From contig JBFXJL010000002.1 in NCBI GenBank assembly GCA_050174915.1, positions 325,553 to 389,552 of the forward strand: a stretch of 64,000 nt of DNA, given 5' to 3'. The notes below the pieces were generated by a model, which searched no databases, was not told the DNA's origin, and saw only the letters and a list, made by a program, of their open reading frames with translations. This DNA is from Elusimicrobiales bacterium. GTDB lineage: Bacteria; Elusimicrobiota; Elusimicrobia; Elusimicrobiales; UBA9959. Positions 6,001-61,576 of the stretch are shown one piece after another. Every line of letters begins with the position of its first letter. The stretch's first letter is position 1. A program made the translations under genes and the position numbers.

Positions 6001-8461
6001 CGCCAGGGTGCGCAAGGTGGACCTGTTCGACCAGGAAAACGCCCTGAACACCCAGATCTCTATCAGCCTGGCCCAGACGCAGACCCTAAGCCCCCTGGCC
6101 CAGACGTTCTTCGCCGTCTACGACATCGGCGAAATGGCCGTGAAGGCCAACAAGGTGGGCCTGATGATCCGCGACCGCTCGTGGCTCACGGTCAACGTGC
6201 CGCACGACATTGCGGCGCAGGTGTACATGAACATAGACAAGGCGCTGCCGCAGGGTACCTATACCGGCGAGTACCCCGTCGCGTCCAGCCTCGTCCCCAT
6301 CCGGGCCATCACGCTGGCCGTCAGCGGCACCAACATCTCGCCCAGATCGGCCCAGAAGGACACCAGGAACGTCCCGTTGGTCACGCTCGATCTGTCCACG
6401 CTCTCGGACTTCGTGGCCATAGGCCAGGTCAATTTCACCCAGGGCGGCACCATCAGCAGCGCTACCGTGGGCCTGGGCGACGGCGACCTGACCCGGGTCT
6501 CCCTCTGGAAGGACGACGGCGACGGCGCCTTCAGCCCGATCACGGACTACCGGCTGGGTTCGGCCGTGCATTCCTCCACGAACCCCTTTGAGAGCCGGAT
6601 ACAGGTATCCATCATGGACGGCAATCTGCCTTACCTGATCGTTTCTACCTCGAGCATGATCCTGCACCTCACCTGCGACATCAGTTCCGGCACGGACCTG
6701 TCCGGCGCCGACACCCTGGGCCACCTGGCCAGCGTATCCCTGGCCGCGTTCTCGGACCTGCGCGGCCTCGGCGGGCTGCCGCTGGCCGCCGGCCAGAACT
6801 TCACCGACGTTTACCCGATCGCCTCCAACCAGGTGCTGGTCGCGCCGGCCATCATCCCGCTGACGCCGGTGTACAAGAACATCATGCTGGCCTCCAACGG
6901 CTATCCCGCCTACGCGGTGACCGATTCCAGCGGCAACGTGCTGTTGGGCGCCGGCAACCTGCCTGTGGCCGACCCGAGCTACTGGATCTATAACTACACC
7001 GCCTCCGGCTGCCGCGCCGACGAGCCGCTGATAGACATTAACGGCGACGGCCGGCCGGACAACTACGACTTCTACGGCTCCGGCAAGTGCGTCAACGTCA
7101 CGCTGAACAATTCCGGCCTGCCTTCCTTCGACATCAACGGCGACGGCCTGCTGGACTTCGAGTCCAACCTGGACTACGTGCCCGACAAGATCGTGGACGA
7201 CGGCACCGGCAAACCGCTCTACTTCATAGGCGACTTCGTGAAGAACGCTAACCTGCTGCTGGCCGTCTCCGACCTGGGCGCCGTGCCCTCGGCCTGGTCG
7301 GCCAAGACCACCGAGCTGCCGGCCCTGTGGAACCCCGCTTCCGGAGCCGTGGACTCCTACGAGGTCTCCCTGGGCGGCAATTTCGAGGACCCTACGGGCA
7401 TCAAGAATTCCTGGCAGTCCGTGGGCGCGGCCCTGGGCGGAAGCGTGACCAACGTGGCCCTGTCCCCCGGGCATATCACCAAGCTGACCAGCCGCATAGA
7501 GGTCAACACCTCCTCTTTCACGGTGCAGTCCACCGAGGGCTTCGCCACCGAAGGTATCGTCTATGTCGGCAACGAGATCATGCTGGTCAGGAAGGTCGAC
7601 GGCGTCACCTTCGCCGTGCAGCAGCGCGGCGTGCAGGGCTCGTTCAAGGGCCCGCATACGGCCTGGGGCGAGGCCGTGTCCGACCGCGGCTACGTTCTTT
7701 CCGTGCGCGGCAAGATGGCGGACGGGCGCTACGTGCCCAGCGAGAACGGCGTACCTGTGCTGATCTACCGCATCGACACTAGTTATCCGTCCGTCCCCGG
7801 CGCCCCCGAGCCCCAGGTGGCCAAGGGCGTGGCCTCGGGCCAGGTGTATACGCTCAAGTGGAACGCGGCCGACGACCCCGAGTCTAATATCATGTCCTAT
7901 GAGGTGCAGGAGCGGGAGGGCACCAGCCCCGTCTGGAAGACCATAGCGGCCATCCCCGGCTTCAAGACCGGCGGCGCCGTTAATAATATATATTCCGTGG
8001 GCGACGTCTCCGTGCCCGGAGAGACCCCGCGCAAGACCGGCACCTACTACACCTACCGGGTGCGCAGCTGGAACTTTGCCGGCATCCACTCGGAGTGGTC
8101 CACGGTCTCCACCCCGGCCGGCACCACCATAGGAGAGGAGCTGATCAGCAAGGTTTCCAGCTTCCCGAACCCCGTGGACCTGCGCAAGGGCGGCGTGGAG
8201 GGCAGGGTGGACATCACCTATACCCTTAACGATAACGCCGAAGTGACAATGACCATCTACGACCTCCTGGGTTACGTGGTCAAGGAATTCCGCTTCTCCA
8301 GCGGTTCTGACGGCGGCAAGCTGGGGCCCAACCACGTGCTGTGGGACGGCAAGAACGGCCTGGGCGGCACCGTGTCCAAGGGCGGCTATATAGTGCGCGT
8401 GAAGGCCTCCAGCCCCAAGGGCAGCAAGGTCATTCTTCGCAAGATAGGCGTTATACATTAA
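5..8461 (+). CDS. Giant (>=2818 aa) secreted surface/adhesin-like protein. It has repeated beta-rich modules with DxDxDG-like loops, one fibronectin type III domain and a C-terminal FlgD-Ig / T9SS-sorting-like domain. The true N-terminus may lie upstream of the window.
   Basis: The ORF is uninterrupted for 8.4 kb. Seven recurring '(V/I)x(V/L/I)(W/Y/F)xD..(D/N)G' motifs start at nt 2450, 2993, 3800, 4612, 5162, 5702 and 6496. 'DINGDG' loops lie at nt ~7030-7160. An FN3-like signature 'YTLKWNAADDPESNIMSYEVQ...YYTYRVRSWNFAGIHSEWS' lies at nt ~7787-8125. The C-terminal 'FPNPVDLRKGG...TMTIYDLLGYVVKEF...WDGKNGLGGTVSKGGYIVRVKA' (nt ~8152-8458) resembles FlgD-Ig / Por-secretion-tail domains. The ORF starts 4 nt from the window edge. 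Confidence 0.85.
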   Translation: MQPAIHQLRVNPAQVAKVAFGNDPRSMTAGKLTDRFGELQVFKAELRDMFDNPAVATAPVQVALSTHTRQPSLINDSFAFSTASALSGAFPPVFASTVSAIQIPLDGYTATFYYLDTTASSVYASSMTPVRPIVKVEVPEREGWASSTQSVTIMPDLTYRVNVSYNAGQVLTAGATSQMFQLSIEDHYGNPTPVASGQEDALGAGIAFSLASDSAGQVKFSSPDPDAFAAQPGSARMFLGQATTSFYLIDTLVSDPTHQLLINTTQSKGWLPAVSSYTVTPASPDHVLFYTPQRRLVAGTTVQYADYTTDLATPTVVTVALKDAYDNNTTTNTQVTVRLSALRNSTYGGIDPSTATVSSNPSWKLLLTNPLDLDIPAGYSFANFYVWDTIVGTAAITANAYISAGNITLPQVSQDQYITPSTAAYFTLHHTYTIASPLRVQTPGYITLRARDQYGNVAAGDPVNGRYYTGKINMVTNSKGSADLRDYITNATDYTFVPADRGERTLMLYDTMVETLRINVTDYQRPGVFGHTSDNGRGLPQGSSADLVLSGLVINPRDMAPEDPLPVSKTSIGISKNAIYQGDGVIADIPAPVPMLRLTMQTQPVGSPPAYLKSVQLKSSGTLSYSDIVEIGMYADNPSSGQLGLFDGETALGAPPVDIFMSSGTWDPGLMGWKFEDLNTKVSTAAIVSDTARNFFFAVRMSTVAATPRSFAVALDNPSFVVLSSTFVGVAYNNFPIVTATSPVRNQPATVLVQARDIGAWWQAGVDAGQYDYVEQGTERAGFLAISAWTDNFIGTIKSFRIIKTGTGSGQDLKSVRLFLDDGDGEFGQAIDKEVTDPANPPTFNPADPGTYLLPLYNPGLDGAVSISTRTYFVVYEFQPDAVPNMTHGARLENSGVSLIDGVVGAFTPVASSTVPLYATADLVNLVDVNRAAPNDFSKPSFVTQNDVNKPVARLTMKVTDTIGSAVWRGLKLDRWVTASENGGTDAWNMVTDVKRISLWHDSTGDGLLQTTTTVKDTEVVLLGANTRNFPYDTLKAPLVSTDTVIRVTDIQKFFPSDSPFPMAPGRLIINDAQPDPALKEVVYYASVDVLTNSFGNLTRGAEGTTQVEWSSGTVISGQAVLPLIGDGTSLDGQAIFSEPRDYFITYDIDPLANVSNFSYLGMAMRSTDYFYIEAPKLMSQANVGVTAPGKTLSLVGRVNEYADSVIVTASDTFTGDNLQQQAVNQPILDFTMKTDVADAIWRWMLVYATGTAVRDGTAVPDVSAVKVWYDKDNNGFLGGIDEEVGSGTFGNTIYGPLVARVALSQEQRIVTSEKASLDNTSRRYFLTYDIRDSAMPNDALGNPRYLGAYLKPESFPQGSPSFDDASKNALSLPNKFFPDDSNLTYVSRVREIISSPSTVTVNTEPVFAFEGGSSFPNLRLTQDVVSPGPMDAAWLVTSTAGIPSSGYAMVDNEIVQYAGTAAGALTMVTRGVFSTPVVNHSSGAAVGGMVRQGWDNYPLMKMTLTTAGYGVRWRGFRLSRMQPSGLNGYDSDVSMVKVWKDNGNGVFDRDPVTGMNTSDVLVGSARFGENDPVGKATVYVADPALANQDYVVVSATPTMVFVTMDIDRASRFSHQLLTPQNDVLGVEVPFESNFLFGPDNSGHVADFLNPAASAMNVMMPTLNDVTLEPEDISPVAAVQNDKNVGLLALHMKVDKTSALLEAVKLRRLGTAADSDIDLIKVWRDSNDNCILDSVDTASTTAGLYPNLMSYGNEAYSSSTINVVLKTPIVITTSPSCAFISYDLSQFAIVGSTTALNLGGVADLTIGIPNTVTMTTWPVNTMPIKIQEIASDVRLGANDMAAALLQSGGVGQAQVGVPMLRFNLTTEAGNARWSAVKVQRTGASNDPNAPFGKNTDVKFVSIYQDSNQNDILDVNDVNISEARTALAEALSSTATVPFQLVLDSTAGFPSAGRLYVSDAELMTYSGSGLSASGKPYLNVTVRGERLGDFITPLVNHPAGARVRKVDLFDQENALNTQISISLAQTQTLSPLAQTFFAVYDIGEMAVKANKVGLMIRDRSWLTVNVPHDIAAQVYMNIDKALPQGTYTGEYPVASSLVPIRAITLAVSGTNISPRSAQKDTRNVPLVTLDLSTLSDFVAIGQVNFTQGGTISSATVGLGDGDLTRVSLWKDDGDGAFSPITDYRLGSAVHSSTNPFESRIQVSIMDGNLPYLIVSTSSMILHLTCDISSGTDLSGADTLGHLASVSLAAFSDLRGLGGLPLAAGQNFTDVYPIASNQVLVAPAIIPLTPVYKNIMLASNGYPAYAVTDSSGNVLLGAGNLPVADPSYWIYNYTASGCRADEPLIDINGDGRPDNYDFYGSGKCVNVTLNNSGLPSFDINGDGLLDFESNLDYVPDKIVDDGTGKPLYFIGDFVKNANLLLAVSDLGAVPSAWSAKTTELPALWNPASGAVDSYEVSLGGNFEDPTGIKNSWQSVGAALGGSVTNVALSPGHITKLTSRIEVNTSSFTVQSTEGFATEGIVYVGNEIMLVRKVDGVTFAVQQRGVQGSFKGPHTAWGEAVSDRGYVLSVRGKMADGRYVPSENGVPVLIYRIDTSYPSVPGAPEPQVAKGVASGQVYTLKWNAADDPESNIMSYEVQEREGTSPVWKTIAAIPGFKTGGAVNNIYSVGDVSVPGETPRKTGTYYTYRVRSWNFAGIHSEWSTVSTPAGTTIGEELISKVSSFPNPVDLRKGGVEGRVDITYTLNDNAEVTMTIYDLLGYVVKEFRFSSGSDGGKLGPNHVLWDGKNGLGGTVSKGGYIVRVKASSPKGSKVILRKIGVIH

Positions 8462-8543: not shown

Positions 8544-8571
8544 TTGACAAACCTGTTTAATGTGCTATAAT
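8544..8571 (+). promoter_or_regulatory. Near-consensus sigma70-type promoter (TTGACA-N16-TATAAT, with TGc immediately 5' of the -10) upstream of the OM beta-barrel gene
   Basis: TTGACA lies at 8544-8549 and TATAAT at 8566-8571, preceded by 'tgc'. This implies a ~120-nt 5' leader containing two small GC hairpins (gccgg..ccggc at ~8631-8646 and cccgct..agcggg at ~8662-8678). Confidence 0.55.
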
Positions 8572-8696
8572 ATTAATGCCGTAAATCTGTAACGAGTTTG
8601 TAATGCAGTACTGGTACGATAATAGCAAAGCCGGTGAAAGCCGGCGGCGCAAAGCTAAGACCCGCTAAGTGAGCGGGGGTCAGGCTGCCGAAAACA

Positions 8697-10313
8697 ATGA
8701 AACGCAATCTTTGTATTGCCTTTGCCCCCTTGGCTATATGGGCTGAAACGAAGCGTGTAATACGCTTCAGCCTTGCCATGGGGTTTTTTATTGCCTTTTC
8801 GGCGGCGGACGCCCTGGCCCAGGGCGGCGGCCAGCCCGGCCAGTTCATGAGCTACGGCGCCGGCGCGCGCGGCCTCGGCATGGGCGGCGCCTTCTTCGCG
8901 GTGGCCGACGACGCCTCCGCCTCCTACTGGAACCCCGCGGCCCTCACCCTGCTCGAGCGCAAAGAGTTCACCGCCATGCAGGCCACCCTGTTCGAGCAGA
9001 CCACGCTGAACTTCTTCACCTACGCGCACCCCACCAGCACCAAGGGCACCTGGGCCATCAGCATGACCCAGCTGCAGTCCACCGGCTTCGAGAAGATCTC
9101 CATAACCGCCAACCCCGGCGGAGACGAGATCATGGAGATCAAGACGCTCGGCACCTTCGACAGCACCGAGCGCGCGCTGGCCTTCTCCTGGGGCCGCGAA
9201 GTCTCCGACAAGCTGGCCTTCGGCATCATGGCCAAGAACATCAGCCGCTCGCTGGACACCTCCGTGGACTCCTTCAACGCCATCGATATAGCGATGCTCA
9301 ACAAGTTCTCCAAGACCTACCGCGCCGCGGTCGGCATCCAGAACGTCTTCTCCATGGCCTCGGGCGACACCGAGGATAAGCTGCCCCTGACCCTGAAGTT
9401 CGGCCAGGCGCTCTCCCTGTTCAAGGGCAGCCTGCTGTTCGGCTTCGACCTGAACAAGCCCCAGGGATCCTCCATGAACTGGCGCTTCGGCGGCGAGTAC
9501 TGGCTGATGTACTGGGCCGCGCTGCGCTTCGGCGTGCAGGGCGCCCCCGAGATTCAGGAGGCCGACTTCGGCCTCGGCATCAAGTACAAGAACCTCGGTT
9601 TCGACGTGGCCCAGGGCGTGCACGCGCTGGGGTCCACCACCCGCTTCTCCGTGACCCTGCGGATGGGTCAGAGCAACAAGGCCAAGCACGACCGCGAGGT
9701 GCGCGAGCTGGTGCGCCAGGCCCTGCAGTACTTCAAGAGCGGCTACTTCACCCGCGCCATGGAGAAACTGCGCGCCGCCATGGACGCCGATCCCGGCAAC
9801 CCCGAGGTGCGCCGCATGGTCACCCGCCTGCAGGGCGCCATCGACTACGTGCCGGACGCCACCGGCGGCGACGAGGTCCCCACGCTGACCCGCCGCGGCA
9901 TCATCTCCTACGTGGACGGCAAGGACCTGAAGGCCTCCGTGAACGTGCTGCGCCACGCCTTCAACAAGGACCCGAAGAACGACCGCCTGCTCTCCCTGCT
10001 GAACATGGTGGAGAAGGAAGCCGGCGTGAGCGAGCTCACCCGCAAGCCCGAGGGCCCCGAAATCTTCACCTATATCGACCAGCGCACCTACGACGCCCGC
10101 GCGGCCATCTACGACGGCAAGTACGACCTGGCCATGAAGCGCGCCCAGGACATCCTGGACCTCGAGCCCAACAACGAGACCGCCCTCGAGATCATGGGCA
10201 GCGCGTTCTACCTGATGGACCAGAAAGACAAGGCCAAGGTCATCTGGGAAAAGGTCGTGGAGATCAACCCCAACAACACGATGGTCAAGAACTTCCTGCG
10301 CCAGGTGAAATAA
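8697..10313 (+). CDS. Outer-membrane beta-barrel protein (PorV/PorQ/FadL-like N-terminal signature) fused to C-terminal TPR repeats
   Basis: The N-terminus is signal-like. The motif 'YGAGARGLGMGGAFFAVADDASASYWNPAAL' is typical of PorV/PorQ/UPF0164-type barrels as I recall them. The body alternates beta-strand-like segments rich in G, F and Y. The C-terminal ~190 aa has TPR-like repeats ('ALQYFKSGYFTRAMEKLRAAMDADPGNPE', 'AIYDGKYDLAMKRAQDILDLEPNNETA'). The start codon is uncertain (8697 or the Met at ~8778). Confidence 0.7.
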   Translation: MKRNLCIAFAPLAIWAETKRVIRFSLAMGFFIAFSAADALAQGGGQPGQFMSYGAGARGLGMGGAFFAVADDASASYWNPAALTLLERKEFTAMQATLFEQTTLNFFTYAHPTSTKGTWAISMTQLQSTGFEKISITANPGGDEIMEIKTLGTFDSTERALAFSWGREVSDKLAFGIMAKNISRSLDTSVDSFNAIDIAMLNKFSKTYRAAVGIQNVFSMASGDTEDKLPLTLKFGQALSLFKGSLLFGFDLNKPQGSSMNWRFGGEYWLMYWAALRFGVQGAPEIQEADFGLGIKYKNLGFDVAQGVHALGSTTRFSVTLRMGQSNKAKHDREVRELVRQALQYFKSGYFTRAMEKLRAAMDADPGNPEVRRMVTRLQGAIDYVPDATGGDEVPTLTRRGIISYVDGKDLKASVNVLRHAFNKDPKNDRLLSLLNMVEKEAGVSELTRKPEGPEIFTYIDQRTYDARAAIYDGKYDLAMKRAQDILDLEPNNETALEIMGSAFYLMDQKDKAKVIWEKVVEINPNNTMVKNFLRQVK

Positions 10314-10348
10314 CCCAGGCGCAGGCGGGGCGGGGAGGGCAGGCCGGT

Positions 10349-10470
10349 GAGGGTACGCCTTCTCCGGGTACGTTCGGCCACACCGTGGCCTCACTCTTTC
10401 GCTCCGGTTCGGCGCTTACGCAAGCCTCACCTCCGCGAGGCCCCTCCGAAGGCATACCCTCCCCAGCCTG
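10349..10470 (-). repeat. GC-rich palindromic intergenic repeat, copy A1. The 92-nt core is 10379-10470. A near-perfect 14-nt inverted pair (one mismatch), gagggtacgccttc / gaaggcataccctc, lies at 10349-10362 / 10448-10461, the second arm inside the core.
   Basis: The core is the reverse complement of 29127-29218 with only 3 mismatches by hand alignment. It contains the 'gcgcttacgcaagc' mini-hairpin and the 'ggccacaccgtggcc' hairpin. Confidence 0.8.
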
Positions 10471-10508
10471 CTGCCGCTATGTCTTGGCATTGGCGAAGTC
10501 AGCGGAAG

Positions 10509-10624
10509 CCGTACGGGCAGGGTTAGCAAAACCTTCATGAGGGCGAGGCTTGCGTAGCGCCGAGCCCGATTGATGAGCGAGCGCACGGTGTGCGCGAGCG
10601 CGTTTTGCGTTCCTGCCCGTACGG
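10509..10624 (+). repeat. Degenerate copy A2 of the same repeat family, enclosed by a perfect 13-bp stem
   Basis: ccgtacgggcagg (10509-10521) is exactly complementary to cctgcccgtacgg (10612-10624). The interior 'gaggcttgcgtagcgccgag...gcgcacggtgtg' matches copy D at an estimated ~75% identity, in the same orientation as D. Confidence 0.65.
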
Positions 10625-10733
10625 TGATCCGCCAAGGCCCCTAACGCGGTAGGCCGTGGGAACCGGAGAGGTTTTAATAAGTGAATGTTTTTGAAACTAT
10701 TCTGTAATACGATAAAGTTAGAATAAATGTGAT

Positions 10734-12680
10734 ATGAAAAGGTTTTTAGCCGCCCTAGCGCTCGTTGCGAGCCTGTGGACGCCCCGGGTATCTGCCCAGA
10801 GCGCCGCGCTCGACAATCCCATGATGGAGACCTCGCTGATGCAGAAGCAGGACTCCATGCGCCGCGAGGCGGAGACCAAGGTCAAGAAGGAGATCCTCGA
10901 CCCCATCCTCGGGGCCGACAAGTCCTTCGTGTTCGCCGACGTCGAGCTGGAGGTCATCTCCAAGAAGGCCGAGCAGAGCAAGGAAGGCCTGGGCGTGATG
11001 CAGAAGTACAAGGAGAAGGGCGCCAGCGACGAGGCCGCCGACACCGACTTCATCCTGCCCGGCATCCCCAAGCCCCGCTCCGTACTGGGCGGCGAGAACA
11101 AGCGCCCCGAGGCGGCCCAGGGCCAGCAGGCCCAGCAGGCCAAGGGCGTGCAGGAGATCCGCTACGGCCTCGAGACCGAGATCACCCGCTTCCAGCTGAC
11201 CGTCATCCACGACGAACAGCTCGCCCCGGCCTCCATCGCGCTGGCCCGCGAGCGCATAGACGATTTCCTGGTGCCCTACAAGATCCGCAAGACCGGCGCG
11301 CCCACTGTGGTGTTCAAGCCCACCAAGTTCAAGGCCGGCAACCCGCTCGACGACCTCAAGAAGCCGTCCGTCTACCTGCCCCTGCTTTACGCGCTGCTGT
11401 TCCTGCTGCTGCTGCTGTTCCTGTTCGGCCCGCTGTGGGGCTTCTTCCGCAAGTACATCAAGGCGCTGATGGCAAAGCCCGGCGCCGAGGTGAACATAGA
11501 GGACAAGCGCGAGGAGGGCGGGGGAGGCGGCGGCGAGGACGAGGGCAAGCAGGAGACCGAGGGTCACCAGAGCATAGACATGAACTTCCTTCAGAAGGAG
11601 GAGGAGAAGAAGGAAGACGAGGACGACCTTATGAAGAAATTCGAGCCTTTCACCTATTTGAACGAGGAGAACCTCAAGCGGCTGATCTACCTGTTCCTGC
11701 TCCGGAAGGAGGACCCGTGGGTCATCGCGGTGGTGCTGAGCTACCTCAAGCCCGACCTGAGCCGGCAGGCCCTCTCCATGCTGCCGGTGGAGATGCAGAG
11801 CCGCGTGGCGCTGGAGGCCCTGACCGTGCGCCAGGCCACCCGCGAGCAGATAGAGGCCATAGACAAGGATATCCGCGAGAACGTGGACTTCGTGATGGGC
11901 GGCATAGAGCGCCTGGTGAAGATGCTCGACGACTCCGACCCGGCCACCCGCAAGAACATCATAGAGTACCTCAAGACCCAGAAGCCCGACGTCTACGCCA
12001 AGGTGCGCCAGATCGTGCTGATGTTCGAGGACATCATCAATTTCGCCGACCGCGACATGCAGTCCATCATCCGCAACCTCAACAACGAGGACGTGGCGAA
12101 GGCGCTGGCCAAGGCCGACCCGGCCATCGTCAACAAGTTCTTCACCAACATGTCGCAGGGCGCCGTGAACTCCGTCAAGGAGATCATGGAGTACTCCGGC
12201 GAGGTCAGCCTGGCCCAGTCGGACGAGGCGCAGATGAAGATCCTGGACGCTATCAAGACGCTGGAGTCCGAGGGCAAGATCGCCTCGCGCGGCGGCAACT
12301 CGCAGGAAGTCTATATGATAGAAGGGGGAGAGATGTCCTCCGGCGACGAGCGCCGCAAGAAATTCGAGAGCCTGTCCGGTTCCGCCCCGGCCCCCGCCGC
12401 CAGCCCCACTCCGGAGCAGGCCGAGCAGGCCAGGCAGTACGCCGCGGCCGGCGCCAACATGTACAATCAGGGCCAGGTGCAGGAGAGCCTGCAGTACCTG
12501 GAATACGCTTCCTCTCTGAACCCCGGAGACGCCTCTACCTGGCAGTACCTGGGCGCGGCCTACTACGGCCTGCAGCGCGTGGACGAGGCGGTGGCCGCCT
12601 ACGAGAAGTACGCCACCCTGTCCGGCGACCCGGCCGCTTCCGAATGGCTGGCCGGCTTCAAAGCCAGCGTGGGTCGCTGA
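10734..12680 (+). CDS. Membrane-anchored FliG-like protein: signal peptide, ~190-aa periplasmic domain, one TM helix, acidic linker, FliG middle/C-terminal-like domains and a C-terminal TPR
   Basis: 'MKRFLAALALVASLWTPRVSAQ' looks like a signal peptide. The TM helix is 'VYLPLLYALLFLLLLLFLFGPLWGFF' followed by RKYIK (positive-inside). The segment 'LMFEDIINFADRDMQSIIRNLNNEDVAKALAKADPAIVNKFFTNMSQGAVNSVKEIMEYSGEVSLAQSDEAQMKILDAIKTLESEGKI' aligns by eye with the FliG C-terminal domain (MFxF motif and torque-helix region). The C-terminus has TPR-like repeats ('ASTWQYLGAAYYGLQRVDEAVAAYEKY'). Confidence 0.75.
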   Translation: MKRFLAALALVASLWTPRVSAQSAALDNPMMETSLMQKQDSMRREAETKVKKEILDPILGADKSFVFADVELEVISKKAEQSKEGLGVMQKYKEKGASDEAADTDFILPGIPKPRSVLGGENKRPEAAQGQQAQQAKGVQEIRYGLETEITRFQLTVIHDEQLAPASIALARERIDDFLVPYKIRKTGAPTVVFKPTKFKAGNPLDDLKKPSVYLPLLYALLFLLLLLFLFGPLWGFFRKYIKALMAKPGAEVNIEDKREEGGGGGGEDEGKQETEGHQSIDMNFLQKEEEKKEDEDDLMKKFEPFTYLNEENLKRLIYLFLLRKEDPWVIAVVLSYLKPDLSRQALSMLPVEMQSRVALEALTVRQATREQIEAIDKDIRENVDFVMGGIERLVKMLDDSDPATRKNIIEYLKTQKPDVYAKVRQIVLMFEDIINFADRDMQSIIRNLNNEDVAKALAKADPAIVNKFFTNMSQGAVNSVKEIMEYSGEVSLAQSDEAQMKILDAIKTLESEGKIASRGGNSQEVYMIEGGEMSSGDERRKKFESLSGSAPAPAASPTPEQAEQARQYAAAGANMYNQGQVQESLQYLEYASSLNPGDASTWQYLGAAYYGLQRVDEAVAAYEKYATLSGDPAASEWLAGFKASVGR

Positions 12681-12721: not shown

Positions 12722-12804
12722 CACACCGTGCTCGCCCCTCCTCACTCGGCCTCCGCGCTTACGCAAGCGTCGGCCTCCGTGAGGGCCTTCCGGAACCATC
12801 CCCG
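12722..12804 (-). repeat. Divergent copy B of the GC-rich palindromic repeat family
   Basis: 'cacaccgtg...gcgcttacgcaagcg...cctccgtgagggccttccggaaccatcccc' is collinear with copy A1 at an estimated ~65-70% identity. Confidence 0.55.
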
Positions 12805-12976: not shown

Positions 12977-15406
12977 ATGGCAGACGAGAAGAAAATACCC
13001 AAGATGCCCCCGCTTCCCCCGGGGATGCTCAAACCTGGTATGCCGCCGGCGCCTCCTGCCGGCAGGCCTCCTCTGCCGTCCATGCCTGGCATGCCGCAGG
13101 CCGGTTTTCCTTCCCTGCCCCAGGGCTTCGGCCAGCCGGCCGCCGCCCCCCAGCCCGCCGCCAAGGACGACGCCGAAGAGCGCCGCCTGCAGGAAGAAAA
13201 GGACAAGCTGGAGCGCAAGATCTCCGACATGGAGAAGCTGCTCTCGGCCGAGAAAGAGAAGGCGCTGCTCGCCACGCTCAAGAACCAGCAGGACGAGGCT
13301 CTCTCCTCCCGCGTGGAGTCTTCGCTTAAAGATATACAGGACAAAATGCGCCGCGACCGCCGCGACCACGAGGTCGAGGAAGAGCGCCTCACGCTGAAGT
13401 CAAAGATCAAAGAGATGGAAACCCGCCTCGCGCAGGAGCGCGAGACCTGGATGACCACGCTCAAGAACCAGATGTCCGAGCGCGAGGTGCAGGGCCGGGA
13501 CGTGGAAGGGCACTTCATTTACAGGCTCCAGGAGATGGAGCGCCGCTGGCTGGACGAAAAGGCCCAGTGGCAGAAAGAGATCACCTCCCGCGAGGAGACC
13601 ATCCGCTCGCTCAAGTCCGCCTCCGAGAAGCTGCGCGACACCGAGGACGAGCTGCGCAAGATCTCGCTGGAAAAGACGATGTCGGACCGCGAGGTCTCCA
13701 GGCTGCGCGACGACGTGGCCCGCGCCGAGCGCGAGAAGGCCTCGGTCGAGACCTATATCAAGATGATCCCCGAGAAGGAACGCGAGATAGCGGACCTCAG
13801 GAGCGAGAACATCTCCCTGCGCGGCCGCGAGGAGAAGGCCCGCCTCGAGGAGAAGCACAACGCCGAGAAACAGGCTTTCGAACTGGAGAAGATGCAGAAG
13901 GAGATAGGCCGCCTGCAGGCCGAGATCGGCGCCATCTCCGACCGCAAGAACGAGGAGAAGAACGAGGCCCTGCGCAAGCAGGCCGAGCGCTACGACGCCG
14001 CGCTGCTGGAGAAGGAGAAGGCCCTGGCCGACGTGAACGGCGAGAAGGTGCGCGCCATCTCCGAACTCGTCAAGATCAAAGGCTTCGTGTCCCGGGTGCA
14101 GGCCATCAACGCCGTGCTCGACAAGGAACGCGGCCAGCTGCGGCTCGAGAAGATGCAGCTCGCCCAGAACATGGCCGCGCAACTCGAAGAGATACGCCGC
14201 CAGAAGGCTGAACTGGACACCATCAAGGCCGCTCACCAGAGCGAGCTGGAAGCCCAGGCCACCGGCTACAAGGCCGAAATAGCCCGGGTGAAGAACGGCT
14301 ACGGGGCCGAACTGGCCGCCAGGCACGCCGAGGAACTGGCCGAGGCCTCCCGCAGGAACCAGGAGGAGCTGTCCAGGCTGGCCGCGGTGCATCAGGCCGA
14401 GCTGGCCAACGCCGCCTCTTCCCACCAGGCAGAGCTCGCCAGGCTGGAATCGGTACGCCGCGAGGAGGCTTCCAGAGCCGCCGCCGCCCACCAGGCGGAA
14501 CTCGCCAAGGTTTCCGCCGAGCGCCAGGAGGAGGTCTCCAGGATCTCCGACGAGCGCCAGGCCGAAGTCGCTAAAATATCCGCCGAAGCCCAGGCCGAGG
14601 TCGCCAGGATCTCCGCCGAGCGCCAGGCCGAGCTGGACGCCAAGGTCTCCCAGCTGCGCATGCAGTACGAGTCCTCCTCCGAAGAGGAGAAGGCCGCCGT
14701 GCGCAAGCAGCTCGAGACGGCCCACGCCGCCCAGCTGGGTACCGCCAGGGCGGAAGCCTCCGCCGCCATGGATTCGCTGGTCAGGCTGGAAGCCGAGAAC
14801 CGCCGCCTCGCCGCCGAGAGCGCCGTGTTCGAGAAGACCATAGCCGCCAGGACCAAGGATTTCGAGGACAGGCTGGTGCGCGCCGAGGCAGAGGCCAAGC
14901 GCCGCGACGAGCAGGCTTCCCGTGCCGAGGCCCAGCTCTCCGAGTCCCTCGCCCGCGCCGCCGAGGCCGCCAAGGCCGCCCAGGCCGTGGAGACGGAGCG
15001 CCAGCGCCTGTCGGCAGAGTACGCCGCCCTGCGCGAGAAATATTCAGTGATAGAATCCCGCAAAGCCGCCGAGGAAGCCGAACTGGCCCGCCTGACGGAG
15101 AGCTTCAAGGCCCAGGCCGAGAACCTTCGGCTGGAGAGCGAGAACCGCACCCGCTTCGAATCCGAGCTGCTGTTCCTCAAGCAGAAGCTGCAGCAGATGG
15201 AACTGCAGGCCCAGGAGACCGCCGCGCTGCTAGATGAGGAGCGCAACGCCGCCGCCGCGCAGGCCCAGGCCGCCGCCGACCAGGCCGCCGCCGACGCCGC
15301 CCGCCTGGCGGAGGCCTCCGCCGAACTGGAGAAATACCGCGCGCTCGAGGCTTCCTTCGCCGAGCGCCTGAAGTGGGCCCTCAAGGGGAAAAAACAGGAA
15401 GAGTGA
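12977..15406 (+). CDS. 809-aa protein with a proline-rich N-terminus followed by a very long coiled-coil containing 11-residue (hendecad) tandem repeats
   Basis: The N-terminus reads 'PPLPPGMLKPGMPPAPPAGRPPLPSMPGMPQAGFPSLPQGF'. The remainder is E/K/R/A/L/Q-rich with heptad or hendecad character and has no TM helix. Its codon usage resembles that of its neighbours. Confidence 0.8.
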   Translation: MADEKKIPKMPPLPPGMLKPGMPPAPPAGRPPLPSMPGMPQAGFPSLPQGFGQPAAAPQPAAKDDAEERRLQEEKDKLERKISDMEKLLSAEKEKALLATLKNQQDEALSSRVESSLKDIQDKMRRDRRDHEVEEERLTLKSKIKEMETRLAQERETWMTTLKNQMSEREVQGRDVEGHFIYRLQEMERRWLDEKAQWQKEITSREETIRSLKSASEKLRDTEDELRKISLEKTMSDREVSRLRDDVARAEREKASVETYIKMIPEKEREIADLRSENISLRGREEKARLEEKHNAEKQAFELEKMQKEIGRLQAEIGAISDRKNEEKNEALRKQAERYDAALLEKEKALADVNGEKVRAISELVKIKGFVSRVQAINAVLDKERGQLRLEKMQLAQNMAAQLEEIRRQKAELDTIKAAHQSELEAQATGYKAEIARVKNGYGAELAARHAEELAEASRRNQEELSRLAAVHQAELANAASSHQAELARLESVRREEASRAAAAHQAELAKVSAERQEEVSRISDERQAEVAKISAEAQAEVARISAERQAELDAKVSQLRMQYESSSEEEKAAVRKQLETAHAAQLGTARAEASAAMDSLVRLEAENRRLAAESAVFEKTIAARTKDFEDRLVRAEAEAKRRDEQASRAEAQLSESLARAAEAAKAAQAVETERQRLSAEYAALREKYSVIESRKAAEEAELARLTESFKAQAENLRLESENRTRFESELLFLKQKLQQMELQAQETAALLDEERNAAAAQAQAAADQAAADAARLAEASAELEKYRALEASFAERLKWALKGKKQEE
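14381..14644 (+). repeat. About eight tandem 33-nt (11-aa) repeats inside the coiled-coil gene
   Basis: The units are AAVHQAELANA / ASSHQAELARL / ESVRREEASRA / AAAHQAELAKV / SAERQEEVSRI / SDERQAEVAKI / SAEAQAEVARI / SAERQAELDAK. Confidence 0.8.
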
Positions 15407-15490: not shown

Positions 15491-15715
15491 ATGATCAAGC
15501 TAGAAAAACTCAACGGGGCGCTGGTGGTGGTGAACGCCGAACTCATAGAGAGCGTAGAGGCCGGGCCGGACACCGTGATAAACCTGGCCACCGGCAACCG
15601 GTACCTGGTGCGTAACCCGGTGGACGAGGTCGTGGCCCTGGTGGTGGAGTACAAAAGGAAGGTCTACGCCGAGCGAAAATGCGTGAATCCGATCGAGGGG
15701 CTGGAACGGAAATAG
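15491..15715 (+). CDS. flbD: Flagellar protein FlbD family (small stator-associated protein)
   Basis: The 74-aa product 'MIKLEKLNGALVVVNAELIESVEAGPDTVINLATGNRYLVRNPVDEVVALVVEYKRKV' matches the FlbD pattern (MI.L..LNG..F.LN..LIE.IE..PDT.I.L..G.K..V.ES..EV). The gene lies directly upstream of motA/motB. Confidence 0.8.
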   Translation: MIKLEKLNGALVVVNAELIESVEAGPDTVINLATGNRYLVRNPVDEVVALVVEYKRKVYAERKCVNPIEGLERK

Positions 15716-15731: not shown

Positions 15732-16520
15732 ATGGATATAGCTACATTCAGCGGCATCATAGTCTTCGGCGGCTTCGTATTCGCGGCCATCTATCTCGGA
15801 GAGGGCATACACGGGTTCAAGCCCTTCCTTAACGCCGAAGCTTTCCTTATCGTGATGGGCGGCACGTTCTGCGCGCTGCTGGTCAATTTCCCGCTCTCGT
15901 CGGTGATCAACTCCACGAAAGTGCTGAAAAAGGTGCTGACTACCAAGGGCGAGGATACCTCCAAGCTGGTGTCCACCTTCGTCTCGCTGTCGCAGAAGGC
16001 CAAGAAAGAGGGCTTCCTGGCGCTGCAGGGCGACGTGCAGACCATCGACAACGATTTCCTCAAGCGCGGCGTGCAGCTGGTCATCGACGGCGCCGACCAC
16101 GAGTTCATCCGCAACATGCTCGAGACCGAGATCGACTTCATCACGGAGCGCCACAAGGCCGGCCGCGAGATCTTTAACGCCCTGGGTACCTACGCCCCGG
16201 CCTTCGGCATCATCGGCACCGTGCTGGGCATGATCATGATGCTTTCCTCCATCGACGATGTGGCACAGGTGCCCCGCCGCATGGCCCTCGCCCTGGCCGC
16301 CGCGTTCTACGGTATGGGAGCCGGCTACTGGCTTTTCATGCCGATGGCCGGCAAGCTGAAGCACCGCTCCGAAGAGGAACTTTTCGTGAAAGAGATCATC
16401 ATCCGCGGCGTGCTGCTGCTGCAGAGCGGCGCCACGCCCAGCGTGGTGGAGGCCAACCTGAAAGCCTACCTCGAGCCCGGCAAGCGGAAGAACGTGGCGA
16501 AAGAGGGCGCCGCGGCTTAA
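15732..16520 (+). CDS. motA: MotA/PomA-family flagellar-type stator protein (proton channel A subunit)
   Basis: The 262-aa product has a 4-TM layout, a large cytoplasmic loop between TM2 and TM3, and 'YAPAFGIIGTVLGMIMML' and 'ALALAAAFYGMGAGYWLFMPMAGKL' motifs typical of MotA/PomA. An SD-like 'ggag' lies upstream. Confidence 0.85.
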   Translation: MDIATFSGIIVFGGFVFAAIYLGEGIHGFKPFLNAEAFLIVMGGTFCALLVNFPLSSVINSTKVLKKVLTTKGEDTSKLVSTFVSLSQKAKKEGFLALQGDVQTIDNDFLKRGVQLVIDGADHEFIRNMLETEIDFITERHKAGREIFNALGTYAPAFGIIGTVLGMIMMLSSIDDVAQVPRRMALALAAAFYGMGAGYWLFMPMAGKLKHRSEEELFVKEIIIRGVLLLQSGATPSVVEANLKAYLEPGKRKNVAKEGAAA

Positions 16521-16547: not shown

Positions 16548-17351
16548 ATGCGGAAAAGAGTCAAAGGCATGATCCCGGAGGACGACAGGCGGGTATCCCC
16601 GATGGGAGAGCCCGCGCCCCCGTTCATGGTCAACTATGCCGACCTCATGACGGAGCTGGTCTGCTTCTTTGTCATCCTTTACGCCCTGTCCGCCGCCCTG
16701 AACAAGGATATGCAGAAGGCCCAGCAGGAAGTTCAGGAGATGATCAAAGAGGGCAAGATGGCCGGCCAGGTGCAGATAGACAAGGAAGGCATGCGCATCA
16801 CGCTCGAGGAACAGAGCGATATGGCTTTCTTCGAGAGCGGCAAGGCCGAACTGACCGACCAGATGCGCACCCAGATGGACAAGCTGTCCCCGGTGCTGCT
16901 GAAGCTGGCCGAGAAGCACGACATCGTGGTGGAAGGCCACACCGATAATATCCCTATAGCCACCCAGCAGTTCGCCTCCAACTGGGAGCTGTCCACCGCG
17001 CGCGCCACCAGCGTGGTGAAATCCATGCTTGAGAGTAAGTTCGCGCCCAAGCGGCTGTCGGCCGTGGGCTACGGCGAATACCACCCCAAAGTCCCCAACA
17101 CTTCGAGCGTCAACCGCAAGACCAACCGCCGCGTGGTGTTCTTCATCAAGAACAATCCTTATCCCGACCCGACCGGTCCCCCGGGACCGGACGGCAAGCC
17201 CCTTCCGGCCGCTCCGGAGGGTGGCGCGCCGGCCGTGCCTGAGCAGGCTCCGGCCGCTCCGGAGGGCGCCGCCGAACTTCCGGTTGAGGCGGTCCCCGCC
17301 CCGGAGACGCCCTCCCCGGCCGGAGACGCGCCCGCGGAAGACGGGCAGTAA
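16548..17351 (+). CDS. motB: MotB-family stator protein (OmpA-like peptidoglycan-binding domain) with a Pro/Ala-rich C-terminal tail
   Basis: 'NYADLMTELVCFFVILY' carries the conserved TM-proximal Asp. The OmpA-like core reads 'VVEGHTDNIPI..FASNWELSTARATSVV...AVGYGEYHP...NRRVVF'. The start could instead be the ATG at 16569. Confidence 0.85.
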   Translation: MRKRVKGMIPEDDRRVSPMGEPAPPFMVNYADLMTELVCFFVILYALSAALNKDMQKAQQEVQEMIKEGKMAGQVQIDKEGMRITLEEQSDMAFFESGKAELTDQMRTQMDKLSPVLLKLAEKHDIVVEGHTDNIPIATQQFASNWELSTARATSVVKSMLESKFAPKRLSAVGYGEYHPKVPNTSSVNRKTNRRVVFFIKNNPYPDPTGPPGPDGKPLPAAPEGGAPAVPEQAPAAPEGAAELPVEAVPAPETPSPAGDAPAEDGQ

Positions 17352-17364
17352 CAGGAAGGAATTT

Positions 17365-18105
17365 ATGAAGAGAGAACTGATCCGCATACTGGCCGTCACC
17401 CTGCTGGCCGCGCCGCTGGCCGGCTGCTTCGGCGGCATGAGGCATTTGAAGGTGGTGGATTACACCGACTCGCGCGTGGGCGACCTGTCGCTGACCAAGA
17501 AGGTCACCGGCAAGCGTGAGTTCCTGTTCTTCTCCACCACCAAGATGAGCGTCTTCCTGGACGGCAACATCCAGGGCGTGATCACCGATTACCAGGGCAA
17601 CCCCATAGAGGGCGTCACCGTGAAGGTCATGCCCGATACCGCCCGGCAGGGCGCCGGCGGCGGGGACGGCGGAGACGTGTTTGCGTTGGATGAGAACGCC
17701 GGCGCGGCCATCAACCTCTCCTTCGCGCCCGGCATCACGGACACCATGGGCCTGTACAAGATACATTTCTCGCTGCCGGTCACCGACGAGGAGGTGGACG
17801 TGCGCGGCAAACTGGTCTACAACCCGGGCTGGGACCAGCAGCGCCTGAACCTGGGCAAGGCCTACGAGCCCCAGATGAAGGAATCCCCTTTTCGCCTCTA
17901 TTTCAATATCGACACCGGTTTCCTGGCCTTCGCCGAGGGCGTGCGCAAGGTCATAGTGCAGCCCGTGGGCGAGGGCAAGGGGCGCATGGAAAACCTGCCG
18001 GGCGCACAGGCCCCGCAGCCCGTTGCCAGGCCCGACGCAACAGCTCCCGCCGGGGGCGCGCAGGCCGAGGAAGATCTTTTCAAGGGCTTCGACTTCGGTC
18101 AATAA
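17365..18105 (+). CDS. Lipoprotein with a carboxypeptidase-regulatory-like (CarboxypepD_reg) beta-sandwich segment
   Basis: The start was re-set inside track ORF 17029..18105 to the ATG at 17365, which follows the SD 'aggaagga'. The lipobox is 'LLAAPLAGC'. 'GVITDYQGNPIEGVTVKV' is CarboxypepD_reg-like. Confidence 0.7.
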   Translation: MKRELIRILAVTLLAAPLAGCFGGMRHLKVVDYTDSRVGDLSLTKKVTGKREFLFFSTTKMSVFLDGNIQGVITDYQGNPIEGVTVKVMPDTARQGAGGGDGGDVFALDENAGAAINLSFAPGITDTMGLYKIHFSLPVTDEEVDVRGKLVYNPGWDQQRLNLGKAYEPQMKESPFRLYFNIDTGFLAFAEGVRKVIVQPVGEGKGRMENLPGAQAPQPVARPDATAPAGGAQAEEDLFKGFDFGQ

Positions 18106-29066: not shown

Positions 29067-29126
29067 TACGGAGGAGCGGCCGCTAAGGCCTCCGTTCGAC
29101 ATATGTGAACCGGGTAAGTAAGACGG

Positions 29127-29218
29127 CAGGCTGGGGAGGGTATGCCTTCGGAGGGGCCTCGCGTAGGTGAGGCTTGCGTAAGCGCCGAACCGAAGCGAAA
29201 GAGCGAGGCCACGGTGTG
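29127..29218 (+). repeat. GC-rich palindromic intergenic repeat, copy D (reference orientation)
   Basis: This 92-nt stretch is the reverse complement of 10379-10470 with 3 mismatches by hand alignment. Confidence 0.8.
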
Positions 29219-34843: not shown

Positions 34844-35194
34844 GGGGGCGAATAGGTTCGACGTTAACTTGTTCTGCAGGATCAGCAGGTCATGGTTGAC
34901 CAGGCCATGTAAAACAGGGTCAAAAAAACAAAAGCCAACTCCAACGAGCTGGCCTGGGCGCACGCCTAAGTGTGCCTCGCTTATAGTCTGCCCGCCTGAG
35001 CGGACTGTACTGCGTTAAATTCAGGCTGCTGTCGCCGGGGGCGCGCTTCGTCCCGCGTCGGCAAAAGATAAGACGGAGCTGGGCCGGCATTGTCGCCTTG
35101 AACTTATGCCGTCCGAGACAAACTCAGGGCTAAGCCTGTAGCGGTTCCTGCAAGCGGTTTACGGACCCGGGTGCGAATCCCGGCGCCTCCACCA
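34844..35194 (+). ncRNA. ssrA: tmRNA (SsrA), with proposed tag ANSNELAWAHA
   Basis: The 5' 'gggggcgaataggttcgacg' resembles the tmRNA 5' end. The 3' 'ggacccgggtgcgaatcccggcgcctccacca' forms the T-arm, acceptor stem and CCA. The acceptor stem GGGGGCG/CGCCTCC contains the G3:U pair. An A-rich tract precedes a resume codon GCC at 34934, 91 nt from the 5' end, and the TAA stop is at 34967-34969. Confidence 0.9.

Positions 35195-57741: not shown

Positions 57742-61576
<3,835 letters not shown>

Follow-up and report, generated by a model that had tools for sequence, protein, structure and literature searches.

The stretch of DNA analysed here, referred to as the window, comprises 64,000 nucleotides from an Elusimicrobiales bacterium (assembly GCA_050174915.1, contig JBFXJL010000002.1, positions 325,553 to 389,552). 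Between positions 5 and 18105 it carries a cluster of genes, all on the + strand, and one of these, the open reading frame (ORF) 10734-12680 (+ strand, 648 amino acids), is the subject of this report. Its product, hereafter called the fusion, consists in this order of a signal peptide, a periplasmic domain resembling ring-building motif 3 (RBM3) of the flagellar protein FliF, a transmembrane (TM) helix, an acidic, glycine-rich linker, the domains FliG_M and FliG_C, and a TPR tail. Canonical FliG, in comparison, is a soluble cytoplasmic protein of approximately 330 amino acids, whose N-terminal domain FliG_N binds the C-terminal tail of FliF.

Domain architecture of the fusion protein

The features of the fusion are as follows.

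10734-10796, + strand: signal peptide, residues 1-21, predicted cleavage at VSA/Q
10797-11369, + strand: periplasmic FliF RBM3-like domain, residues 22-212
11370-11447, + strand: single TM helix, N-out/C-in, residues 213-238
11448-11642, + strand: acidic, Gly-rich cytoplasmic linker, residues 239-303
11643-11903, + strand: FliG middle domain, in which the EHPQ motif reads EDPW (residues 326-329)
11904-12311, + strand: FliG C-terminal domain, torque helix at nucleotides 12147-12194
12429-12677, + strand: cytoplasmic C-terminal TPR tail, residues 566-648

The topology was derived from hydropathy, an AxA-type cleavage site and the positive-inside rule. The N-terminus, MKRFLAALALVASLWTPRVSA followed by Q, combines a basic n-region, a hydrophobic core of 12 residues and a V-S-A cleavage-type site, and an N-terminal hydrophobic segment is present in many diverse members of the family. 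Residues 213-238 are the sole strong hydrophobic stretch of the protein (Kyte-Doolittle 2.7) and are flanked on the cytoplasmic side by RKYIK. This helix is also the most conserved segment, with a mean column identity of 0.95 among 119 homologs; the corresponding value for FliG_M is 0.91. The linker (EDKREEGGGGGGEDEGKQETEG) occupies the place expected for the C-terminal tail of FliF and FliG_N. An earlier note, made from the sequence alone, had described a signal peptide, about 190 amino acids of periplasmic sequence, one TM helix with RKYIK and an acidic, Gly-rich linker, and both hydropathy and the positive-inside rule bear out this description. The same topology predicts that the FliG part faces the cytoplasm and not the periplasm.

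The FliG-like region had been recognized in the earlier note by eye, and profile searches place its homology to FliG far above chance. Pfam detects FliG_C (PF01706) at residues 412-516 (E 6.9e-26, 91.1 bits, cutoff 23.3) and FliG_M (PF14841) at residues 322-384 (E 5.7e-11, 42.9 bits, cutoff 25), and residues 304-526 match the middle and C-terminal domain structures of Thermotoga maritima FliG, 1lkv and 3ajc, with E ~7e-32 in HMMER. The TPR tail, likewise proposed before, is recovered by Pfam at residues 577-640. As both families are defined, the fusion belongs to neither of them. FliG_N gave no significant Pfam match (16.6 bits against a cutoff of 25, in a match overlapping the M domain), and the NCBIfam fliG equivalog scores 116.9 bits, below its cutoff of 226.7; without FliG_N, EHPQR and R281/R297, and with a membrane anchor, the protein lies outside FliG. 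Pfam found no match in residues 1-300, nor was PF01514 (YscJ_FliF, covering RBM1-2) matched. Only about 40 residues precede the RBM3-like fold, and a probable signal peptide takes the place of the N-terminal FliF TM helix; without RBM1-2 and this TM helix, the protein also lies outside FliF. In flagella, RBM1-2 of FliF seat the export gate.

A predicted FliF RBM3-type domain in the periplasm

The earlier note had guessed that the periplasmic part might resemble a ring-building motif. Three converging lines, a structural model, profile searches and distant family members, indicate that the domain is such a motif, and specifically a FliF RBM3 with a collar-type insertion. In an AlphaFold2 model of residues 22-212, built with 31 homologs, a helix and a long strand are followed by an insert of ~60 residues, a second long strand, a helix and a strand, and the core reaches block-mean pLDDT values (AlphaFold2's per-residue confidence) of ~81-94. 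When this model was compared with the PDB using Foldseek, the best 18 matches, with E values down to 2.3e-7, were all FliF MS-rings of Salmonella, Vibrio and Bacillus; far weaker matches, among them PrgK and EscJ, ranked below them. A profile of 24 diverse family members searched against the PDB also found FliF first, at 3.9e-6, 2.3e-5 and 2e-4, and SpoIIIAG at 1e-4. Furthermore, a hidden Markov model (HMM) of 86 family members matches two natural FliF-FliG fusions at residues 227-408 and 234-410 (8e-16 and 5e-15), ranges which mostly coincide with Pfam YscJ_FliF_C in these proteins (245-400 and 258-403). YscJ_FliF_C (PF08345) is itself found above its gathering score in the distant family members P0174, P0224 and P0201, which are 25-30% identical to the fusion. 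FliF RBM3 and SpoIIIAG are both known to form closed rings. The related ring proteins SctJ, PrgK and EscJ as well as SpoIIIAG share the alpha-beta-beta-alpha-beta ring-building fold and match the domain more weakly; however, none of them has FliG attached or MotAB as a partner, and FliF RBM3 gives the best and most numerous matches.

The insert is located at the position of the FliF beta-collar (collar-loop peptide DTDFILPGIPKPRSVLG) and contains the most conserved motif of the family, the nearly invariant FILPGIPKP (nucleotides 11049-11075), which aligns with GIPGALSNQP of Vibrio FliF, the only FliF sequence compared. With this homology of the periplasmic domain to RBM3, the protein is a natural mini-FliF/FliG fusion, composed of the C-terminal half of FliF and of FliG, minus RBM1-2 and FliG_N. 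The earlier description as a single-polypeptide FliF-FliG-style protein was accurate in this respect, RBM3 and FliG_M/FliG_C being combined in one chain. The recognition of the periplasmic domain as a homolog of FliF RBM3 with a collar-type insertion, and hence of the protein as a FliF/FliG fusion, is new.

The gene cluster encoding the fusion

Besides the fusion, the cluster contains the following genes; it is followed by the housekeeping genes mnmA and ddl.

5-8461, + strand: giant secreted or surface protein, C-terminal 2818 amino acids; the ORF leaves the window at its left end, with no stop codon upstream
8697-10313, + strand: PorV/PorQ-family outer membrane beta-barrel (residues ~49-322) with C-terminal TPR (residues ~337-536)
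12977-15406, + strand: Pro-rich coiled-coil protein, 809 amino acids, cytoplasmic
15491-15715, + strand: small protein of the FlbD/SwrD family (PF06289, E 5.4e-24)
15732-16520, + strand: MotA/PomA-type stator A subunit, 262 amino acids, cytoplasmic loop KK(91-92)...Q99-G-D
16548-17351, + strand: MotB-type stator B subunit, TM helix with the Asp of YADLMT, plug and OmpA-like peptidoglycan-binding domain
17365-18105, + strand: lipoprotein, 246 amino acids, lipobox LAGC, the last gene of the cluster

The stator subunits are of flagellar type. MotA has the four-TM MotA_ExbB domain with a charged cytoplasmic loop and matches MotA of Clostridium sporogenes (6ysf/8ucs) with E 7e-49 and PomA with 4e-47; its best NCBIfam models are those of MotP, MotA and PomA, all below the equivalog cutoffs (MotP 236 against 394). 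MotB is recognized by MotB_plug (2.5e-10), OmpA (5.5e-18) and NCBIfam MotD/MotB (8e-44). An identity as Zorya or some other defence system was considered and rejected, as PADLOC yielded no ZorA match for MotA and only generic ZorB similarity for MotB (1e-17). The third motor-related protein, FlbD, is a factor that associates with the stator in flagellar systems and belongs to the same family as SwrD of B. subtilis, which is described as raising motor power, the defect of its absence being rescued by overexpression of MotAB (PMC6878767).

The PorV-like protein is assigned by NCBIfam NF033709 (E 7.6e-33, 114.5 bits, cutoff 90), and Pfam detects TPR_19/TPR_2 and weakly FadL/UPF0164; its TPR domain is presumably periplasmic. 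The giant protein ends with an FN3-like region and a domain resembling the C-terminal sorting domains (CTDs) of the type IX secretion system (T9SS) at nucleotides ~8201-8413, in which an FPNP...K-x-x-x-x C-terminal pattern is readable and which has weak matches, below cutoff, to the C-termini of PorZ and PorU. The coiled-coil protein consists of a Pro-rich N-terminus of ~60 residues and ~740 coiled-coil-like residues with a basic, Trp-containing C-terminus that reads ...RLKWALKGKK; neither a TM helix nor a Pfam match was found in it. The lipoprotein starts with MKRELIRILAVTLLAAPLAGC and is beta-rich; a listed ORF of 358 amino acids (17029-18105) extends too far upstream, into motB, and the true start is at 17365. 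Its AlphaFold2 model is poor (pLDDT 50), Pfam finds only a sub-threshold CarboxypepD_reg, and the protein was seen only in Elusimicrobia. No paralogs are present inside the window. GldL/M, GldK/N, SprA or PorU did not turn up in scans whose scope was the cluster, with no genome-wide search, and a Pfam scan of 38 other products of the window, which apart from the cluster are of housekeeping type or have no assignment, found no flagellar genes (two further candidate genes, ~49334-50032 and 59936-61576, were left out).

A c-di-GMP riboswitch precedes the PorV-like gene

Two regulatory elements are located between the giant-protein gene and the PorV-like gene.

8544-8571, + strand: sigma-70-type promoter-like site, TTGACA-16-TATAAT, 12/12 consensus, extended TG
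8614-8692, + strand: c-di-GMP-I riboswitch aptamer (RF01051, 58.2 bits, gathering score 35, E 1.4e-9)

The riboswitch, whose ligand is cyclic di-guanosine monophosphate (c-di-GMP), stops five nucleotides before the PorV-like gene reaches its first ATG. Translation of this gene may instead begin at another ATG, at 8778, and a hairpin located ahead of it, at ~8742-8771, is a possible expression platform. Of seven related loci searched with Rfam, five carry the riboswitch (L001, L012, L031 with a GGC variant, L045 and the paralogous L004), and the DNA of promoter and riboswitch is 77-97% identical in ~50 related loci. c-di-GMP controls many motility and adhesion genes. In the window, a tandem pair of overlapping genes for GGDEF diguanylate cyclases (35826-37172 and 37169-38407, + strand), one of which includes a GAF domain, follows the cluster at a distance of 18 kb.

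Conservation of the rotor-stator interface

The equivalents of E. coli FliG K264, R281, D288, D289 and R297 in the fusion are A459, G476, E483, I484 and S492, both in HMMER alignments and in hmmalign alignments with canonical FliGs, identical to the register that the earlier note had read by eye. E483 is, in these alignments, a conservative replacement of D288, and a lysine, K460, is found one position past the K264 site. To put these residues into context, 86 diverse family members were compared with 22 FliG sequences of canonical length (325-350 amino acids), at least one of which is a fragment of the fusion family. At the R281 position, Gly is found in 78 of 86 family members and Arg in 19 of the 22 canonical sequences, and the R297 position is Thr or Ser in 65/86 of the family and Arg or Lys in 18/22 of the canonical FliGs. 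The D288 position is Glu in 72 and Gln in 13 of the 86 members (acidic in 21/22 canonical), and Glu in all of the 66 related loci that were read. D289 is replaced by Glu in 56/86 members, with Ile in the clade of the window, and is acidic in 19/22 canonical sequences; K264 corresponds to Lys or Arg in 56/86 and 20/22, respectively. All family members share the GG linker, and the MFxF hinge is likewise retained. Of the EHPQR motif, E and P are kept and H, Q and R160 are lost. The latter three residues contact FliM in flagellar motors, and the loss of these switch-complex contacts fits the absence of FliM.

On the stator side, the equivalent of MotA R90 is Lys in 49 and Arg in one of 50 loci in which both genes could be read, and that of E98 is Glu in 38, Gln in 11 (including the window) and Ala in one. 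The classical charge pairs between rotor and stator are R90/D288-D289 and E98/R281 (PMC12505986). As the acidic D288 equivalent of FliG and the basic R90 equivalent of MotA are both kept, one of the two canonical pairs is therefore retained, whereas the second pair is disrupted in the rotor and relaxed in the stator. The idea that FliG R281 and MotA E98 were lost together, as G476 and Q99 in the window might suggest, was rejected, since FliG has Gly in 50/50 pairs while MotA keeps Glu in 38. Covariation between FliG and the charges of the MotA loop, which the earlier note had recommended examining, was not found in the 50 paired loci. Its proposal that the torque charges are replaced, giving a different electrostatic interface, therefore stands in part: the changes of R281 to Gly and R297 to Ser or Thr are systematic, but the acidic D288 equivalent is kept and the MotA R90 equivalent is Lys or Arg in 50/50 loci. 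One locus without a readable MotA (L056) keeps Arg at the R281 position. A working rotor-stator interface is plausible, as the GG linker, the MFxF hinge, one charge pair and the channel Asp, plug and OmpA domain of MotB are all kept.

Related loci in the Elusimicrobiota

A scan of GTDB species representatives was performed with the closer alignment A1 and samples the close, Elusimicrobiota part of the family. It revealed 63 species-level loci, 60 of which have Elusimicrobia, Elusimicrobiota, Elusimicrobiales or Elusimicrobiaceae in their titles; the other three are called just 'bacterium'. Among loci with sufficient flank, each neighbor is present and colinear in 84-98%: the PorV-like gene in 51/54, the C-terminus of the giant protein in 38/45, the coiled-coil gene in 49/50, flbD in 43/45, motA in 40/42, motB in 38/40 and the lipoprotein gene in 32/35. 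Flagellar export, rod or hook genes were never found as neighbors in the 63 loci. The fusion is thus genetically locked to a flagellar-type stator, a PorV-family protein, a giant protein with a putative CTD, a coiled-coil protein and a lipoprotein.

The family extends further. An exhaustive HMMER search recovered 81 clusters (50% identity) below 1e-30, and full-length relatives of the same architecture were found down to 25-30% identity; several paralogous clusters are possible per genome. PorV-like, giant-protein and MotAB neighbors recur where the fusion is just 25-41% identical. The PorV-like gene lies directly upstream of the fusion also in the distant loci L002-L005, L071 and L073, and the C-terminal 1000 amino acids of the giant protein, which are kept upstream of the cluster in the 38 loci mentioned above, are also found in the distant loci L004, L005 and L073. 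L002 and L003 contain the PorV-like gene, the fusion, a coiled coil of 1190 amino acids and FlbD-MotA-MotB nearby. In L004, riboswitch, PorV-like gene, fusion, a coiled coil of 1196 amino acids, FlbD-MotA-MotB and lipoprotein are present, with the giant C-terminus upstream, and in L073 a giant protein of 17141 amino acids is accompanied by the PorV-like gene, the fusion and long coiled coils of up to 1604 amino acids. Shorter fusions with neither TPR tail nor coiled-coil gene are encoded by L005, L006 and L072, and those of L006 and L072 pair with MotA-MotB-MotB, two MotB paralogs following one MotA. TPR tail and coiled-coil gene (at least 782 amino acids) are accordingly both present in five of five loci (the window, L001, L002, L004 and L073) and both absent in three of three. 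A neighbor gene in L072 encodes a CHU_C protein, that is, one with a T9SS type B CTD.

The giant-protein orthologs of L001 (1-7792; 12449 amino acids) and L073 (1-7241; 17141 amino acids) are among the largest bacterial proteins; only their C-terminal ~1000 amino acids can be aligned with the copy of the window. Immediately upstream of the fusion, L005 (2643-4391) and L072 (8409-9980) encode a TolB-like Tricorn_N/PD40/fn3 beta-propeller. Five further proteins, P0207, P0227, P0236, P0251 and P0254, are FliG_MC fusions of 560-996 amino acids with no TM helix, whose N-termini look FliM/CheC-like, for example MTEVLTQDEIDELLTAINAGD. P0411, from the cluster of P0175, was deposited as 'Thermoprotei archaeon' on a contig of 4.9 kb, a label that more likely reflects mistaken binning than a fusion of archaeal origin.

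Comparison with known systems

The fusion descends from the flagellar rotor-stator core and would work like it. RBM3, FliG_M, FliG_C, MotA, MotB and FlbD are homologous, and the topology corresponds to FliG placed behind the C-terminal half of FliF. The cluster proteins also have the GG linker and MFxF hinge of FliG, the Asp, plug and OmpA domain of MotB and the MotA-R90/FliG-D288 pair. In contrast to the flagellar motor, one polypeptide takes the place of two, a signal peptide that of the N-terminal TM helix, and a TPR tail has been added, whereas RBM1-2, FliG_N, the EHPQR residues, R281 and R297 are missing. The neighbors also differ, with PorV-like, giant, coiled-coil and lipoprotein genes in the cluster and no genes for export, rod, hook, filament or FliM/N nearby.

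Natural full-length FliF-FliG fusions are represented by P0266 and P0239 (787 and 774 amino acids), which consist of YscJ_FliF, YscJ_FliF_C, FliG_M and FliG_C without FliG_N. P0266 is encoded by a metagenomic locus (L070, 8001-10364) inside an operon of the order flgB-flgC-fliE-[fliF/G]-fliH-fliI-fliJ, and as this is a genuine flagellar operon, covalent tethering of FliF and FliG is therefore compatible with motor function. Both proteins share with the fusion of the window the covalent link and the loss of FliG_N; however, they retain a full-length FliF with RBM1-3 and two TM helices, the canonical torque-helix charges and the EHPQ motif. Engineered FliF-FliG deletion-fusions of Salmonella are likewise tethered rotors that have lost FliG_N, and they, like the P0266/P0239 type, differ in being part of complete flagellar operons.

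Among systems that act on the cell surface, the T9SS and gliding machinery of Bacteroidota (GldLM, the PorV shuttle and SprB) also links a proton motor of the 5:2 type to a PorV-family barrel and giant surface proteins with CTDs, the CTD of the giant protein in the window being a putative one (PMC8986121). In the cluster, however, the motor is MotAB with a FliF/FliG rotor instead of GldL/GldM, the PorV-like protein carries an extra TPR domain, genes for GldK/N, SprA and PorU are not included, and the phylum is Elusimicrobiota and not Bacteroidota. The Agl-Glt system of Myxococcus, whose components include the coiled-coil protein AglZ and the TPR protein GltI, shares a motor of the MotAB/TolQR family with cytoplasmic coiled-coil and TPR parts, outer membrane barrels and an adhesin; its sequence kinship is limited to the motor superfamily, and it has no FliF/FliG domains.

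A possible non-flagellar rotor-stator machine

The conserved cluster of a c-di-GMP riboswitch with MotA/MotB, a PorV-like and a giant protein points to a flagellar-type motor reused beyond the flagellum. With a probability of roughly 55%, the fusion is the one-polypeptide rotor subunit of a proton-driven, non-flagellar rotor-stator machine that is coupled to the outer membrane and a surface adhesin. The context of PorV-like protein, giant adhesin and riboswitch thereby changes the likely function with respect to the earlier note, which had envisaged a FliF-FliG-style rotor or a static MotA-docking scaffold. In such a machine, RBM3 and the FliG armadillo domains would drive oligomerization of the subunits into an assembly resembling the MS-ring and FliG ring, with FliG at 1:1, and the FliG domains would be tethered covalently, replacing the interaction of the FliF tail with FliG_N. 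A peptidoglycan-anchored proton stator, MotA5B2, would turn this ring with FlbD as stator helper, the drive acting through the retained pair of MotA K91 (the R90 equivalent) and FliG E483 (the D288 equivalent). As there would be no export gate or rod to hold, the collar loop with FILPGIPKP could contact the PorV-like protein at its periplasmic TPR domain, the best candidate partner, and the PorV-like protein in turn might hold the T9SS-like CTD of the giant surface protein. Proton flow would then move or load a surface adhesin, resulting in gliding-type motility, adhesin deployment or secretion. On the cytoplasmic side, the Pro-rich coiled-coil protein could bind to the TPR tail and serve as a scaffold or track, and c-di-GMP would set expression through the riboswitch ahead of the PorV-like gene. 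The domain homologies, residue patterns, synteny and riboswitch were observed directly; that the subunits form a ring and rotate, which proteins bind the collar loop and the TPR domains, and what the machine does are inferences.

Several observations weigh against this interpretation. Ring and rotation of the fusion are deduced from homology, and the contacts between collar loop and TPR domain and between TPR tail and coiled coil solely from co-occurrence in a handful of loci. The collar-type insert is modelled with a pLDDT below 50, and the TM-scores of the Foldseek matches, which rest on core fold and topology, are low (0.3-0.46), because the insert is floppy; in the fusion of the window itself, Pfam YscJ_FliF_C was not matched. 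R281 and R297, which are important for torque in E. coli, are gone. The CTD of the giant protein scores below threshold with FlgD_ig (E 1e-5, 25.9 against 27) and Por_Secre_tail (17.5 against 23), and the giant-protein gene is located upstream of promoter and riboswitch and is for this reason a separate transcription unit. A coiled-coil partner of ~800 amino acids per subunit would put a large drag on a rotor and fits a static or linear arrangement better. Finally, the scan for flagellar genes covered the 64 kb of the window, on a contig that measures at least 528 kb.

The coiled-coil partner is central to a first alternative, which we consider unlikely, namely a linear gliding motor of the rack-and-pinion or focal-adhesion type. 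Here, fusions would be arrayed on the coiled coil through their TPR tails without a closed ring, and MotA5B2 units would turn against successive FliG_C domains, pushing the array laterally within the envelope together with its periplasmic domains, the PorV-like protein and the adhesin. The strict co-occurrence of TPR tail and Pro-rich coiled-coil gene (5/5 with, 3/3 without), the giant adhesin-like proteins tied to the cluster, and the drag that 30-odd coiled coils would exert on a spinning ring are in line with this arrangement, as is its likeness to Agl-Glt of Myxococcus with the coiled-coil protein AglZ and the TPR protein GltI. It also resembles the conveyor-belt model of Flavobacterium as outlined in PMC8986121 and bioRxiv 10.1101/2024.09.23.614571. 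However, the periplasmic domain is homologous to proteins that form closed rings, FliF RBM3 and SpoIIIAG, and the short members in L006 and L072, which have neither TPR tail nor coiled-coil gene, still pair with MotAB.

It is also improbable that the fusion is a static force transducer which energizes secretion. In this case, the FliG part would recruit MotAB, and rotation of the stator would be converted into conformational work across the TM helix, similar to TonB/TolA or GldM; the output would be T9SS-like secretion, attachment or release of the giant CTD protein via the PorV-like protein and not motility. This would account for the PorV-family protein as the invariant upstream neighbor, for T9SS-type CTDs on nearby cargo (including CHU_C in L072), and for the TM helix as the most conserved segment, as expected of force transmission or stator contact; the loss of both torque-helix arginines is likewise compatible with it. 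On the other hand, MotB has the full peptidoglycan-binding domain and the plug of torque-generating stators, the FliG hinge, the GG linker and the ring fold of RBM3 would be superfluous for a simple adaptor, and no SprA, PorU or GldK-N homologs were seen in the cluster.

Even less probable is a role as the rotor, or as an accessory or second rotor, of a reduced or divergent but real flagellum whose remaining genes are located elsewhere in the genome. Every motor-related part of the cluster is of flagellar descent, a natural FliF-FliG fusion serves elsewhere as the rotor gene of a flagellar operon, the flagellar-gene scan was limited to the window, and a few Elusimicrobiota hold full flagellar gene sets (Uzun et al. 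2022, bioRxiv 10.1101/2022.07.08.499144). Yet RBM1-2 are absent and the FliM-binding residues lost, the neighbors in the 63 loci are PorV-like, coiled-coil and lipoprotein genes and never those for flagellar export, rod or hook, a genome can hold several paralogous clusters, and the literature reports motAB, flbD and fliG without structural flagellar genes in most free-living members. That the fusion is a functionless, decaying relic of a lost flagellum, as the loss of R281, R297, EHPQR and whole domains might suggest, is hardly credible and is effectively refuted by the conservation pattern, with strong conservation in at least 60 species (mean column identity 0.95 for the TM helix and 0.91 for FliG_M), intact ORFs, a preserved gene order, conserved promoter and riboswitch, paralogous expansion and the same architecture down to 25% identity.

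Implications for flagellar motor evolution and surface behavior

To our knowledge, FliF and FliG are known only as flagellar parts, and no target besides the flagellar C-ring is known for MotAB-type stators of the flagellar clade. Full-text literature searches yielded no description of the fusion architecture or of the cluster, the only relevant text being a passing remark in Uzun et al. (2022, bioRxiv 10.1101/2022.07.08.499144), according to which most free-living Elusimicrobiota have, in KEGG profiles, homologs of motAB, flbD and fliG without flagellar structural genes, the role of which was called 'enigmatic'. Taking the non-flagellar rotor-stator reading one step further, it is tempting to propose a previously undescribed, envelope-spanning rotary machine, in which a fused, minimal MS-ring/FliG rotor is spun by MotAB and FlbD without type III core or filament, and in which torque passes via the PorV-like protein and its TPR domain to giant adhesins of up to ~17,000 amino acids, resulting in c-di-GMP-controlled surface motility or adhesin actuation. 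This proposal, taken as a whole, is tentative, and we place it some way below even odds.

If it were correct, the system would, depending on polarity, represent either the first known case in which rotor and stator of the flagellum were exapted or a descendant of a rotor older than the flagellum, from a time when the export apparatus had yet to be recruited. It would offer a handle on the evolution of the flagellar motor and on the question whether rotor and stator existed, or can exist, without a type III export apparatus. The system would also add a new way of coupling ion flow across the inner membrane to the outer membrane and the surface, beside Ton/Tol, GldLM/T9SS, Agl-Glt and Zorya, and with one charge pair, no switch complex and a 1:1 stoichiometry it would provide a minimal, compact rotor-stator pair for structural and single-molecule work on torque. 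Furthermore, it would explain the 'enigmatic' motAB, flbD and fliG genes of non-flagellated and magnetotactic Elusimicrobiota and would predict a surface behavior regulated by c-di-GMP in these largely uncultured bacteria.

Repeats and RNA genes in the window

The fusion gene is flanked by copies of a dispersed repeat.

10379-10471, no strand assigned: GC-rich palindromic dispersed repeat of ~93 nucleotides, resembling repetitive extragenic palindromic (REP) sequences or miniature inverted-repeat transposable elements (MITEs), with further copies at 12722-12803 and 29126-29218 (- strand)

The copies at 10379-10471 and 29126-29218 lie on opposite strands and are 96.8% identical, and spacers of related Elusimicrobia loci harbor copies in either orientation. 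The first copy sits within the 420-nucleotide spacer that precedes the fusion gene (10314-10733), for which folding gives z = -4.4. In addition, the window contains a tmRNA gene at 34844-35194 (+ strand, 127.8 bits) and a tRNA gene at 54152-54223 (+ strand).

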